Below are positions 39,001-57,000 of a DNA stretch of 64,000 nt, one piece after another. The first letter of the stretch is position 1; each line of letters starts with the position of its first letter. The DNA comes from Paracoccaceae bacterium (GTDB lineage: Bacteria > Pseudomonadota > Alphaproteobacteria > Rhodobacterales > Rhodobacteraceae): the NCBI GenBank assembly GCA_039960995.1, contig JBDVKF010000020.1, positions 8,948 through 72,947 of the forward strand. The letters are read 5' to 3'. Made by a program: the position numbers.

Positions 39001-42000
39001 AAACTTCGGCTGGAATATGACCAGACTTACGAACCGCAACCTCTAGGGCAATATCTGCGTACAAACGATGGTATCTTTCTGCAACATTTCGAATGTGACG
39101 AAAGCAATTGGCGCGCGGCTGTTGAGGCTTATTGGTTCATTGGGACGCTGGAACGTTTGCCGGAATGTCTTAATTACCTTGCTGAAAAACTGGACAAACC
39201 GGCGCCGGGTATCCTTCCTCATGAAAACAGCACGGTGCGCGACGAAGAAATCACCGAAGACGATATCGCGATTTTCAGGGCCAATAACGCAGTTGAGTTT
39301 GAAATCTATGACGCTGTGGCGGCCCGATTGGACGCATCATTGTTGCAACATTCGAGCGATTAGTTCACGGGCGGAAAATCGAGGTGCCCAGCCGGGATAG
39401 TCGGACTGGAACGCGCGTGTATCTGATATCCACCACATGTGATCGCCGTAGCGAGATTGAGGGTTGTGGTGGCGGGGCACTTCGCGGCCCAAAATCTCTT
39501 GGGCGAGATCAAGCGCTTCGGTCACGGAAACAGAACTGTTGCGACCGCCGCCCATATTGTAGACGCCTTTGGGTACTCCACCTTGCACGACACGTGCAAA
39601 GGCCTCTGCAAGATCATCGGCATGCAAATTGTCACGGACCTGTTTACCGCCATTTCCAATGATCTCATAGCTGTCTCCGGCCACAACGGATTTGCACAAA
39701 TAGGACAAGAAACCGTGCGCCTTTGCCCCGCTGTGATCTTCGCCGGTCAAGCATCCCGCGCGAAAGACTGCGGTCTGCAGATCAAACCGATCGGCATATT
39801 CCTGTACCATCAGATCGGCGGCTACTTTTGAAACACCAAAAAGACTATGCTGAGTCTGATCGATGGACATGGTTTCATCAATACCGTGCTTGAAAAACGG
39901 GTGATCTGTTGGCGGCTCTAATCGGGTATTGTGCGCGATCAAAGGCAACAGGTTCGGGCGGGCACCGTAGACCTTGTTGGTGCTGGTAAATAAAAACGAG
40001 GCGTTGGGTGCATGTGCGCGGCAGGCTTCCAGCAAGTTCAGAGTTGCGGTTGCATTGATGCCAAAATCGGTCTTGGGATCCGTGGCTGCCCAATCATGCG
40101 AAGGTTGTGCTGCGGTATGTACGACGACCCCCAACGCATTTCCAAACCGCCCAAACAGTGCATCGATGGCATTTTCATCGCGAATGTCGAGCTCGTAGTG
40201 CACATAGCCCGGGCAGGTGGCCTCAAGCATTGGGCGCTTTTCTGCATTACTTGCCGCGGCGCCAAACAGCTTTGAACGCTGATCGTTGTCGACACCAATA
40301 ACTTCAAAACCAAGTTCAGTAAATTTGCGCACCGCGGCAGTGCCGACAAGACCTAGTGAACCGGTGACAAGTGCCAAGCTTTTTTCGGTCAAGAGGCCTG
40401 TCTCCGTTTCGGGAACCGGTTTGCGGGACGTCATTCAACCCCTTAACAAAACGTATCGAGATCGCCTATACTGAACAAGTTGATTATTGCTTTTTGGATA
40501 ATTGGATTTTTGTGATACGGTCTTTGAATGACACAATTGAGAATTTTTATATCATCTATTGTGATGGTTTTGGTGTTCGCCGTTGGGGCTATCGCGCAAG
40601 TGTCAGGCCAGACAGACAACAAACGCGTGGCCTTTGTTGTCGGCAACTCCGCTTATCAAGGTACTCTTCCGGAACTGAAAAATCCTGTCAATGATGCTCA
40701 GGATATGGCGGTAAAGCTGGAGGAGTTGGGCTTTGAGGTGATTGTTGCCACCGATCTAAGCCTGCGCGCTTTTCGCTCGTCCCTCCTTGAATTTGCTACG
40801 GCCATGGAAGGAGCAAACACATCATTGTTCTTTTATGCAGGCCATGGTGTTCAGGTAAATGACGAAAACCATTTGATCCCGATTGATGCGCAAATTTCGC
40901 GCGTGCGCAGCTTGGCTGACGAAACGATCACTGTGAATAGGATCGTGGGATTGATGAACCAGTTCACGGATACCTCGATTGTGCTTCTTGACGCGTGTCG
41001 GGACAATCCGCTGACCAGCGATATTCCGATTGGTGAACAGCAGGATGGCTTTGGACGCGGTCTCGCACGTGTCAGAGCGGATGGGGGCTCTTATATCGCA
41101 TTTGCGACAGCACCAGGCAACGTTGCCTACGATGGGGAAGGGCGCAACAGCCCGTTCACAACCGCCTTGCTGCAGCATATTTCCGCGCCAAACTTAGATA
41201 TTCGTCTGATGATGGCCGATGTGCGCCGTGATGTGTTTGAAGCGACTCAACAGCGGCAACTACCTTGGGAAAATAACTCGTTGATTGGCCGGTTCTTCTT
41301 TGATGAGAACAGTACGTTGCAAAGGCTCGACAGCGCCAATCGTAACGAAGTAGAGGCTTGGCAAGCGATAGCGAACTCAAACCGGCGCGAAGATTACACC
41401 GCATTTATGCGCGACTTTCCGGACGGCAATTTCGCATCGGTCGCCGAATTGAAGGTAGCTGCACTTGGGCAGGCTGAAGAACGGGCCAGCGAGGCGCAAT
41501 CAGGTTTCGTTCTCGCACGGGCGACCAACACAGAAGATAGGTGGGAAGATTTCCTGGAAAAACACCCTCAGGGTTTGCTGTCTGACATTGCGCGTGAGGA
41601 ATTGAGGGAGTTACGCGACCAGATTGAACGTGATCGTATGTCGCTTGAAGAAATGCACTGGCGCTCGATTGCGCAGTCGCGCGCGCCATCCGACTTCAGG
41701 ACGTATCTTTCAATTTATAGCAACGGTCCGTTTTCCGATCTAGCACGCGATCGTTTAGAGGCGGCGGAGCGTGCAGAAGAGATTGTGGCGACATTTACCG
41801 GAGGGGATGCTCCCGAGAATGTCAGCGACGTGCGTCTCGAACAAGAAATCAAAGCCAAAATTGACCAGATTCCAGTTCAGTTCATTCAATATGGGCTGAA
41901 TGCCCTCGGTCATCAGGTCACCGATATCTCGGGGGTTCTAGACCCGCCAACCCGGCGTGCGGTTCGCAATTACCAGGCAACAATTGAAGCCACCCAGACG

Positions 42001-54000: not shown

Positions 54001-57000
54001 ATGCTTGCCGAAACAATCCCTTTGCCGACAATGGTCTGGTCAGACCCGGCCTTGTGCGCGACAGTGGCGGTGCCGGGCTTTTGATCGCCTATGCAACCGA
54101 CCCGGGCAATGTGGCGTTTGACGGATTGGGCGACAATTCAGTCTACACGTCAGCTCTGCTCAAGCACATTGCTACACCGGCTCTTGATGCACGCTTGATG
54201 TTGGGACGGGTGCGACAGGAAGTCGTGCTTGCCACTGACGGCGACCAGATTCCCTGGGTCGAAGAGGCGGTGCTGGGTGAACACAGCTTCAATCCGGACG
54301 CACCGACGCGGGTGATCGCGGATGTGCAGGCAGATGAATTGACGCGGTGGCGGCAAATCTCGGACAGCCTTGATGTCGCGGCTTTCGAAAACTATTTGCA
54401 GGACTATCCGGACGGGCTGTTCGAACGGTTCGCGCAAGACAGAATTATCGCTCTGAAGTCGTCAGCCCGGCTGGCACAATCCGAAGAGCCAGAGCAGCTG
54501 ATTGCCTCTGCCAATACCCAAAGATTGACCGCGGCGTTGAAAGTCCTAGGGCTGGACGGAAACGGCAACCTCAGTCGCGGCTTGCGCGTCTACCAGCAGC
54601 GCCTGCCCAACCCAACCACGCTGAGCGAAGAACAACTCTATGCAGATGCGGCCCGCATGTCGATCTTTCTGGCCGCGACGACCTTGCAACAATTGCGCAC
54701 CGATCTGGTCGCGCTGCGCGGCATCCAGCGCACTCTGAAAATCTCGCAAGATGCGCTTGCCCAGATGGAAGAGATCGCGAAAACAAATGTGGATGCAGAA
54801 CCGCTAGTCCAGCAGGCTCGCCGCGATATCAACGAGATATTGCGGGCCCAGGGGATCGTACTGCGTCGACTGGATCAGACCCGCACCTACTATGGCGAAA
54901 TCCTTGAAGAGTCCTCCGCCTTCTTTCCGGATGACGCCACACTGGCCCTGTTGGGGGGGATAGATCGCGGTCGCGATCTTGGGGCCACTGGACAAAAGCT
55001 CAATGAAAACGCTTCAATATTTTTGCGCCATCTGGGGCAAACCGAAGAAGACACAAAAGGAAGTTATAAGTGGCTCGCAGACTTAATTTCTCACGGATAA
55101 CGGCTGCCCTGTTGATCGGCAGCATGGCGCTGGCAGCCTGCGACAGCGGCACGACAACGCAAACGACCACTGCCAGCATTGCCCAGGGAGATTCCGAAGC
55201 AGAACGTGAACTGCGTCGCGCATCCCAGGCGATGCAAAAGACCATTCTGGAAGGTGCAGCCGCAGGTGGCGCTGCAGGCGGTCTTATTGGTCTGTCCATT
55301 GGCGACAGTGGCGATGCTGGCACGGGCATCACGATCGGCGCCGGTGCGGGTGCCGCAGCGGGCACCTATGTTGCGTTCGTCCAACGCAAATTCGTGCGGC
55401 GGGCGCGGCGACTGAAGCAGGTGCAGACTGATCTGGATCGCAATGCGCAGGAAATGGAAGCGACCCTCGCTGCCATGAATGCAGCGCTGCAAGTACAGAA
55501 ACAGGATTTGGCAGCCGTGCGTCTGAAGGTTGCTCAGGGAATCGGAACACCCGAAGAATTGGCCCGTGAAACGGCCGAGGCAAACAGCAACCTTTCGCAA
55601 ATGCAATTTGCCATCGATGGTGCCACTAAGCGGCAGGCAGAATTCGTCGAAACCCGCGACCTGACCAAACGCCGCGACGACGCGGTCGCGCCGATCGACC
55701 CGGAACTACTGGCCATGTCAAACCGCATCGCCGAAATGAAAGCTGTCGCCAGTGATCTGGCTCAATCACTTTGAGGACGGGAGACTGACTATGAAATGGG
55801 CCATCTTTCTGACCTGTGCGGGCCTTGCGGCCTGCACAACCAGCGTGGATCCGGCAGAAGGTGGGTTCTTCAATGGCGTGTCGGGCATCGCGACCGGCAG
55901 CTATCAAGACCAGATCGACGCCGATGAAGCGCAGGTCGAGGCATCCCGAGCGCGCAATGCCAATCTGGCGGCGCAGATCCGGAGTTCGGAATCTGAACTG
56001 GCGCGCTTGAAAGTCACGATCGTGAACCAACGCAATGCCTTGAGAAACACCGATGCCGCAACTTCCAACCGGATCAACGCAGTGTTGGTGTCCGAGCCCA
56101 CAGGCAACACGGACGCCGCGCGCCTGGCAGCTCTGCAACAAAGCATCGCCGATGCGCGCGCCTTGTCGCAAGACTTGGCGAAACTGTCAGGCTAAGGATT
56201 GGCGCATCGATCCCTGCTGTGACTTAACACTTAAATCGGGACTGATGTTGTCACCACCATGTCGATCAGATCGTCGTGTATCTTGTGATAAACGTGCACT
56301 TGGGGCGGCACAAAACAGTGGCAGGTCCAACAAAGCCTGTCGGACCTAAAAATCGCAGCTGACGTCAGTGACCGAATTTGGGGGTGACTCAGTTTGTGCG
56401 TTGCTTTTCCAAAACGCTGGAGCGATAGTTTGACATCGGTTTGTTTTGGGAGAAGTTGATATGAAGTACACATTTGGCTTATGTCTTGCATTATTCCTTT
56501 CGCTTGTGTCGGCGAACAGCGGTGCGGCTCAATCAAACCCTTTCGGCAATGGGTGGATCCTCGAAAGCGATGCGTCCACCCTTCAGTTCCAGTCCATTAA
56601 AAAGAGCTCTGTAATCGAAACCAGTTCCTTTGCGAAAATATCTGGAGAAATCGACAGTGGAGGTGGCGTTTCACTTGAAGTTTTACTCGATAGCGTCGAC
56701 ACAAAGGTTGATCTGCGCAACGTAAGAATGCGGTTTCTCTTCTTTGAAACATTTAATTATCCGACTGCCACCGTCAGCGCACAGATTACACAGGACATGA
56801 TTGCAGATCTGGCCAATGTACGCCGCAAGAACGTTGTTATGCCTTTTTCCCTGGATCTGCACGGCGTCACCAAAACGCTTGAGGCTGAAATATCCCTGAC
56901 TTTGATTGGCGATGACCTTGTCGCCGTTTCCACTGTAGAACCAATTAATTTGGCCGTTGATGATTTCAATCTTTTGGGCGGTCTCGAAAAACTGTCAGAA

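Follow-up and report, generated by a model that had tools for sequence, protein, structure and literature searches.

Three exported caspase-like proteins of a Paracoccaceae bacterium belong to separate old subfamilies, each with its own conserved envelope module

Protease domain and export signals

The 64,000-nucleotide stretch analysed here, from the genome of a Paracoccaceae bacterium, a marine alphaproteobacterium (assembly GCA_039960995.1, contig JBDVKF010000020.1, positions 8,948–72,947; below, "the window", in whose own coordinates all positions are given) carries three genes for caspase-like proteins: caspase 1 at 40528..42315 on the plus strand (595 residues), caspase 2 at 50325..51806 on the minus strand (493 residues counted from TTG) and caspase 3 at 53556..55100 on the plus strand (514 residues). 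As judged by their sequences, all three are members of the bacterial orthocaspase/paracaspase-like family C14 and possess Sec-type signal peptides. The initial annotation had described these open reading frames (ORFs) as secreted caspase-like paralogues; the translations are as it quoted them, and the C14 matches and signal peptides confirm the description. The caspase-2 frame, too, translates exactly as quoted, with the reservation that its start at 51806 is ambiguous: TTG 51806, GTG 51788 or ATG 51782 may serve, and a database homologue 97% identical to caspase 2 is six residues shorter.

The Peptidase_C14 domain (PF00656) spans residues 32–256 of caspase 1 (nt 40621–41295), nt 51051–51713 of caspase 2 and nt 53631–54266 of caspase 3. 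In a Pfam scan it was detected with E values of 2.9e-39, 5.2e-37 and 8.3e-37 for caspases 1–3, respectively, at scores of 127.5–135.6 bits (cut-off 21.4), and the alignments extend from position 1 or 2 of the model to position 225 or 232 out of 233. The pairwise identity of the three proteins is 30–34%. The core motifs GNSAY, YAGHGVQ, LDACR.NP and AT.PG.VA.DG are identical in all of them, and the near-identical catalytic core noticed earlier is thus common to the three. The His/Cys dyad is intact, since YAGHGVQ and LDACR.NP are invariant among caspases 1–3; H106 (YAGHG) and C157 (DACR) are moreover kept in 20 caspase-1 orthologues. Membership in C14, the dyad and the Asp two residues before the Cys are shared with orthocaspases (e.g. 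MaOC1 of Microcystis aeruginosa) and with alphaproteobacterial caspase family proteins. The NCBIfam model of EACC1-associated caspases (NF047832) was rejected as an assignment, with 48.1, 65.6 and 64.4 bits against a cut-off of 140.

The closest solved structure to the caspases, both by sequence and by fold, is the MALT1 paracaspase. Caspase 1 was modelled with AlphaFold2 (AF2) from 20 sequences, at a mean predicted local distance difference test score (pLDDT) of 69.7. Foldseek places MALT1 at the top (E 8e-10), and the matches of the model to MALT1 and caspases (E 8e-10 to 1e-5, match probability 1.0) agree with a caspase-hemoglobinase fold. The core motifs of MALT1, (L/V)IGN..Y, YYAGHG and LLD(M/A)CR, are near-identical to those described here, and the acidic residues of its S1 pocket align as well: D56, H106, D155 and C157 of the caspase fall into the columns that we take to be D365, H415, D462 and C464 of MALT1. 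The identity is only ~20–30%, over the first 135 residues, and MALT1, unlike the proteins studied here, has death and Ig domains and works as a signalling protease in the eukaryotic cytosol. Caspases 1–3 are predicted to be active endopeptidases cutting after Arg or Lys, because Arg-specific MALT1 is their closest solved structure and Asp56 and Asp155 align with its S1 residues.

The N-termini, inspected by eye, consist of a basic n-region, a hydrophobic stretch of 15–20 residues and an AxA site (AIA↓Q, ALA↓E and AWA↓E in caspases 1–3, respectively), and the first protease strand follows directly after. In caspase 1 the signal peptide comprises residues 1–24. The C-terminal regions differ in the way that had been described. 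In caspase 1, Pfam finds PG_binding_1 at residues 450–496 (nt 41875–42015) and Sel1 repeats from residue 513 (nt 42064–42276). Caspase 2 ends with a tail of ~94 residues (nt 50328–50609) containing four Cys and, according to the alignment of its homologues, an invariant CxxCH. The ~210 residues that follow the repeat in caspase 3, a helical region in the earlier description, have no Pfam or other family match, yet they are kept in the caspase-3 orthologue.

The repeat following the protease domain

Immediately after the protease domain each protein carries a repeat of ~40 residues, in three copies in caspase 1 (nt 41347–41472, 41491–41616 and 41647–41772), two in caspase 2 (nt 50880–51005 and 50685–50810, minus strand) and one in caspase 3 (~nt 54336–54461). 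Among the 50,007 ORFs of the 4.75-Mb genome, a hidden Markov model (HMM) trained on these six copies detects them and has no other significant match. Models from which one protein at a time was left out recover caspases 1–3 at E 2.4e-15, 5.2e-8 and 2.5e-5 in the same ORF set, which settles the significance of the repeat.

The repeat had been noticed as a motif shared by these proteins and a nearby lipoprotein. It turned out to be no private signature. At E<=1e-3 the six-copy profile matches 12,318 clusters among 1.84 billion representative proteins, of which 2,660 reach E<=1e-10, with up to 22 copies per protein and a period of 37–52 residues. Among the best 150 matches, 50 have a caspase domain, which stands ahead of the repeats in 44 of them; others are protein kinases or proteins with signal peptides. 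The record names of the top proteins ("TonB family protein", "caspase-like protein", "kinase/FGE") are uninformative. The family consensus is EEAAWESAKNSNTIAAYEAYLAKYPNGRFAAEARARLAE.

When 69 repeat-bearing proteins from the best matches were scanned against Pfam, YfiO (BamD; PF13525, TPR clan) was found in 49 of them (best E 6.6e-18), Peptidase_C14 in 26, TPR_18 and PG_binding_1 in 12 each, TPR_9 and TPR_6 in six each, and FGE-sulfatase and Pkinase in three each. In the caspase-1 orthologue P0026 the YfiO match lies inside the repeat region (E 1.6e-5, 25.2 bits, cut-off 25). NCBIfam gives sub-threshold matches of the repeat to BamD, YbgF/CpoB and the PA5441 family and holds no model dedicated to it. 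In the AF2 model of caspase 1 the repeat region is all-helical, each unit being formed by a short helix, a helix and a long helix (pLDDT 64–90).

Taken together, the sequence comparisons identify the repeat as a widespread TPR-type unit similar to BamD/YfiO and CpoB, often fused to caspases and not new; the BamD/YfiO and YbgF/CpoB models detect it in part. With BamD/YfiO and CpoB/YbgF it shares helical hairpin units, the signature "a..FL..YP.s..a..A" and a periplasmic docking role. It differs from them by the extra short Trp helix at its beginning, by "P.G" in place of "P.S", by tandem arrays of up to 22 units with the period given above, and by having no model of its own. The repeat proteins are not BamD orthologues, the genome's own BamD being encoded on contig C85. 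The repeats are probably docking sites for partners or substrates, and where each protease is located is probably determined by its variable C-terminus. A designed leucine-rich-repeat protein, the top match in the Protein Data Bank (PDB) profile search with the repeat, aligns over "PQGLFESL" only and was judged spurious.

Long arrays of the repeat occur in the database proteins P0031, P0039 and P0047, where the fusion partners are Ser/Thr kinases or else a PvdO-like FGE fold combined with a TonB C-terminal domain. These fusions imply that the repeat, the caspase, the FGE fold, the peptidoglycan-binding and the TonB-type domains belong to a recurring extracytoplasmic set.

The lipoprotein in question is encoded at 34103..34534 (plus strand) and has the lipobox LAGC and a conserved C-terminal GYSG. 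The six-copy HMM reaches it only at E 2–4. An HMM trained on 944 repeats from unrelated proteins adds only the lipoprotein to the matches in the genome (E 0.0035, the next one being at 0.8). The lipoprotein's orthologues in two other genomes (59% and 34% identical) match the repeat likewise, and when the profile of the lipoprotein family is aligned with that of the repeat (hhalign), the probability is 90.6% and E is 1.3e-6 over residues 53–91 (nt 34259–34375). On the ground of these three matches the lipoprotein is assigned one diverged copy, with Phe replacing Trp and Ser replacing Gly, and the related motif seen there earlier is upheld.

Kinship and distribution

The genome has four C14 genes, three of them in the window. 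The fourth (contig C41:34109–36343) encodes a 745-residue protein with a signal peptide and a metacaspase-type DSCHSG, without the TPR-like repeat. A maximum-likelihood tree was computed from 33 protease domains; in it every caspase of the window pairs with an orthologue from another genus at 99–100% support: caspase 1 with L001 and G084, caspase 2 with G006 and caspase 3 with G072. The source names recorded for orthologues indicate Paracoccaceae, Ruegeria and Tateyamaria; an exact look-up of the orthologue P0017 gave no record. Local duplication of caspases 1–3 is thereby ruled out, since the other-genus orthologues are closer, and the earlier idea of an expansion on this replicon has to be abandoned.

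The distribution was surveyed in 151 genera of the same bacterial family. C14 homologues are present in 57 of them, up to eight per genome and often clustered; multi-copy, clustered genes of exported C14 proteins are common in this family. Caspases 1–3 are three old subfamilies, and each of them belongs to its own conserved envelope module (numbered below as the caspases).

Conserved gene modules

Module 2 begins with an operon at 25249..27158 (plus strand) comprising p149, an exported protein with four Cys, ExbB (25700–26332; MotA_ExbB, E 3e-28) and two ExbD paralogues (26335–26757 and 26754–27158; ExbD, E 2e-20 and 5e-16 for the pair). The gene directly after exbB-exbD (27158..28714, plus strand) encodes a 518-residue TonB-like protein with an N-terminal membrane helix bearing SxxxH, a linker rich in Thr, Pro, Ala and Gln, and a DUF4384-like C-terminus; SxxxH is kept in nine of ten orthologues. 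The remaining members are caspase 2 and an exported YceI-OmpA fusion (56446..57516, plus strand; YceI E 8.5e-11, OmpA E 9.1e-23), the OmpA C-terminal domain of which is of the peptidoglycan-binding type.

Of the 151 genera, 20 have an orthologue of the TonB-like protein, and none of these 20 lacks C14 genes; in 14 of the 19 others the TonB-like gene has a C14 gene within ~5 kb. A seven-gene locus occurs in at least nine genera: the loci compared, from nine genera, all contain p149, ExbB, ExbD, ExbD and the TonB-like protein contiguously, together with a caspase-2 orthologue and, adjacent to it, YceI-OmpA. Most of them have the caspase and TonB-like genes in convergent orientation, and the order p149-ExbB-ExbD-ExbD is kept in 9–10 genera. 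The link between the caspases and a DUF4384-like TonB-type protein, proposed in the initial annotation, thus holds across genera. All seven genes are in the window as well, split into three parts (25249–28714, 50325–51806 and 56446–57516), between which stand Rep3/ParAB, module 1, a PAAR gene, the gene of a 1259-residue protein and the caspase-3 operon. A scan for promoters and terminators from caspase 2 to its neighbours yielded fewer sites than shuffled sequence and was uninformative. DUF4384 has been found fused to alphaproteobacterial pseudo-orthocaspases (PMC6426788), an independent hint that both domains work together.

The genome, which is 99.8% complete, has two genes of the MotA/ExbB family, the exbB described above, which is plasmid-borne, and one on contig C44, probably tolQ. 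It contains neither a TonB-dependent receptor barrel (PF00593) nor a TonB_C domain (PF03544); therefore the motor cannot serve classical TonB-dependent import in this organism, and its conserved neighbours are probably its likeliest clients. The locus resembles Ton (ExbB-ExbD-TonB) and Tol-Pal (TolQ-TolR-TolA-TolB-Pal-CpoB) in having ExbB/TolQ and ExbD/TolR types and an SxxxH anchor with a long linker, and Tol-Pal also in an OmpA-type peptidoglycan-binding partner and a TPR-type periplasmic partner, which is CpoB there. It differs from both in the DUF4384-like head in place of TonB_C or TolA_C, in the two ExbD paralogues, in a caspase as the soluble partner and in a genome without a TonB-dependent receptor. 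A full-text search of open-access papers retrieved no paper on an ExbB/ExbD-caspase locus, and the conserved Ton-like/caspase/YceI-OmpA locus appears to be undescribed.

Module 1 includes the lipoprotein already mentioned, a 1602-residue glycosyltransferase with GT2 and GT41-like parts (34555..39363, plus strand; Pfam), caspase 1 and two proteins of the FGE-sulfatase fold. Protein a (42312..43013, plus strand, 233 residues; PF03781, E 1.3e-28) starts within the stop of caspase 1; protein b (43010..43819, plus strand, 269 residues; Pfam E 1.1e-31) is PvdO-like. Both have signal peptides. In L001 and L014 a lipoprotein orthologue immediately precedes the giant glycosyltransferase, which is 64% and 38% identical there, respectively, and FGE-fold protein a is conserved after caspase 1 in the same two. 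The order lipoprotein, glycosyltransferase, caspase 1 and two FGE-fold genes recurs in a Paracoccaceae assembly, on a 465-kb contig beside hut genes, and in genome G084. Genes of NAD-dependent sugar epimerases/dehydratases flank the caspase-1 operon at 39337–40434 (minus strand) and 43674–44798 (plus strand), the former interrupting the glycosyltransferase-caspase pair, which is contiguous in relatives.

Among solved structures, FGE-fold protein b comes closest to PvdO of Pseudomonas aeruginosa (5hha, E 7e-24) and, in second place, to the inactive pFGE/SUMF2. Like PvdO, the proteins have an exported FGE fold and the N-terminal motif "PGTVF.DC.DCPE"; unlike PvdO, they have no pyoverdine genes around them and occur as two copies alongside a caspase and a glycosyltransferase. 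Neither a nor b has a Cys pair at what we take to be the catalytic-cysteine site of FGE.

In module 3 the stop of caspase 3 is overlapped by a lipoprotein gene (55070..55774, plus strand) whose product has the lipobox LAAC, a Gly-rich segment and a coiled-coil-like tail, and a second small lipoprotein (55752..56195, plus strand, 147 residues) completes the operon. The three genes are kept together in G072 and G015. In G015 the operon is situated 1.5 kb from a Ton-like operon of the module-2 type.

The C-terminal tail of caspase 2

Seventeen homologues of the caspase-2 tail were collected, all of them C14 proteins of 409–518 residues, with a tail identity of 52–97%. The invariant pattern reads W-x4-CxxCH-x-W...C-x-Q...Y...HP-x-G...K...WA...C, the second invariant His being 27 residues beyond CxxCH. 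The tail is restricted to this bacterial family: of the 20 genomes encoding the TonB-like protein 12 contain it, and 401 genomes sampled across the class gave no credible match outside the family. It has no Pfam family match, and the only PDB sequence match is cytochrome c555, at the motif itself, in three weak stretches. An invariant CxxCH in an exported domain suggests covalently bound haem, but the Cys residues may just as well form two disulfides or a metal site.

Contig setting

Between the Ton-like operon and module 1 lies a plasmid maintenance block (28755–33917) with a Rep3-type initiator (28755–29945, minus strand), ParA (30439–31821) and ParB (31825–32910), followed by a TacA-like antitoxin (32870–33373) and a GNAT acetyltransferase (33363–33917), which look like a toxin-antitoxin pair of the TacAT type. 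The GC content of the contig is that of the genome. No terminal overlap of the contig ends was found and no match to public plasmids was obtained in a megablast search with 40528–44000. The plasmid status assumed earlier is based on the Rep3 and ParA/ParB genes; the contig is not closed.

A complete type VI secretion system (T6SS) cluster occupies 65–25019 on the minus strand (PP2C phosphatase, TagF, TssM, TssL-OmpA, TssK, Fha, DUF6931, VgrG and others) and contains a gene of a voltage-gated-type ion channel (Ion_trans, 12348–13199). A stand-alone PAAR gene (45207–45524; Pfam E 1.4e-18) is convergent with the gene of a 1259-residue protein (46270–50049, minus strand) that has no signal peptide and no Pfam match. 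The gene converges with PAAR, as does a 148-residue ORF (45808–46254, minus strand), and follows immediately after that of caspase 2; the two products may be an effector/immunity pair of the T6SS. At the end of the window (59535–64000) there are genes of a 494-residue protein without a Pfam match and of a truncated protein of at least 862 residues with RTX calcium-binding repeats; both are probably secreted and unrelated to the caspases.

Discussion

In our opinion it is probable that caspases 1–3 are exported C14 endopeptidases with docking repeats and distinct C-termini, which represent three old subfamilies bound to separate modules and may take part in motor-linked assemblies. In modules 2 and 3, ExbB/ExbD, as a motor using the proton-motive force, would drive the TonB-like protein. 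Together with this motor, the DUF4384-like head of the TonB-like protein, YceI-OmpA tethered to peptidoglycan and the caspase, through its repeat arm, could make up a four-part assembly spanning the envelope, in which the protease would cut envelope proteins in a limited manner. The TPR-type repeats would act as a protein-docking arm, and the C-terminal region as the "address" of each caspase. The catalytic activity, the specificity at P1, the contacts, the substrates and the physiological role enter this proposal as predictions.

Several observations weigh against parts of it. Synteny means linkage and not contact, and in the window itself the Ton-like operon is 21.6 kb from caspase 2, where co-regulation is not evident. 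The DUF4384 match of the TonB-like protein is below threshold (E 3.6e-5, 24.2 bits, cut-off 27), and the confidence of the caspase-1 model is only moderate, as its mean pLDDT indicates. The repeats of caspases 1–3 themselves yield no TPR-clan match in Pfam even at E<=10, apart from chance hits, and the PDB profile search with the repeat reaches BamD only at E ~0.5; the TPR assignment is therefore drawn from the homologues. An AF2 model of the caspase-2 tail (pLDDT 82) has no Foldseek match at E<3 and none to cytochromes, and the haem reading stays at the level of the motif, because the tail has neither a Pfam family nor a fold match.

A bolder form of the proposal would make the seven-gene locus a new envelope machine driven by the proton-motive force and confined to this bacterial family, in which the TonB-like arm positions or mechanically activates the caspase, the CxxCH tail binds haem and renders proteolysis responsive to redox state or haem, and the organisation is that of Tol-Pal with a protease as the soluble partner. 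We regard it as unlikely in this complete form.

It was also suggested at the outset that the three proteases constitute one cooperating periplasmic network or cascade that arose by expansion on the replicon. They do lie within 15 kb on one contig, they have the repeat in common, and caspases 2 and 3 are both tied to the Ton-like operon in other genera. Against this, every one of them has a closer orthologue in another genus, the identities between them are only 30–34%, and the caspase-1 cassette occurs elsewhere without caspases 2 and 3. The distribution of the proteins over three different conserved modules, caspase 1 being part of a glycosyltransferase/FGE-fold cassette, speaks for separate systems, and a single network is improbable.

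The same low chance is given to the possibility that the caspases are pseudo-proteases, i.e. non-catalytic scaffolds binding envelope partners through their repeats only. Pseudo-orthocaspases are common in Alphaproteobacteria (PMC6426788), and in the known variants the dyad residues are replaced, whereas here His, Cys and their flanking motifs are invariant in the three caspases and in the orthologues.

The caspases might alternatively be accessories of the plasmid T6SS, for instance periplasmic immunity factors or effector-processing proteases. The complete cluster, the PAAR gene and the 1259-residue protein without a signal peptide next to caspase 2 fit such a role; orthologous modules, however, adjoin hut genes or the Ton-like operon, no T6SS genes are present in the 19-kb loci examined, and Sec signal peptides are atypical of T6SS cargo, which makes this explanation very unlikely.

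The FGE-fold ("FGS") domain accompanies caspases in cytoplasmic conflict systems, where a ligand-binding role has been discussed for it (PMC7159879); the present proteins differ from those systems in being exported and in scoring far below the EACC1-type cut-off. A function as cytoplasmic anti-phage effectors of the EACC1-associated or gasdermin-activating type, to which the weak NCBIfam matches (48–66 bits) and the FGE-fold neighbours might point, is hardly conceivable in view of the distance to the 140-bit cut-off, the signal peptides on the caspases and on both FGE-fold proteins, the peptidoglycan-binding and Sel1 domains, and the lack of an NTPase, vWA or gasdermin gene nearby.

Among the nearest known counterparts of the three proteins are the alphaproteobacterial caspase family proteins covered by two surveys (Asplund-Samuelsson et al. 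2012, PMC3501461; Klemencic et al. 2019, PMC6426788). According to these surveys caspase homologues are abundant in Alphaproteobacteria, fusions to TPR, Sel1, FGE-sulfatase and PG-binding domains are already on record, and the N-terminal helices are probable signal peptides. The proteins of the window share with the surveyed ones the TPR/Sel1, PG-binding and FGE-sulfatase partners, the N-terminal hydrophobic segment and the presence of multiple copies per genome; neither survey, in contrast, mentions the CxxCH tail or a connection with a Ton-like operon.

Thousands of caspase homologues are annotated in Alphaproteobacteria, and the proteases and the repeat described here, being ordinary members of known families, add little on their own. 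We know of no exported alphaproteobacterial caspase homologue with a known substrate or role, and of no study of a member of these three subfamilies. The value of the finding lies in the context: one caspase subfamily is consistently tied to a Ton-like motor that lacks a classical client in this genome and to a peptidoglycan-tethered partner. The parts worth following are the conserved Ton-like/caspase/YceI-OmpA locus and the CxxCH tail. This context offers a testable handle on what periplasmic caspases do, and the locus points to a possible use of the ExbB/ExbD motor other than import.

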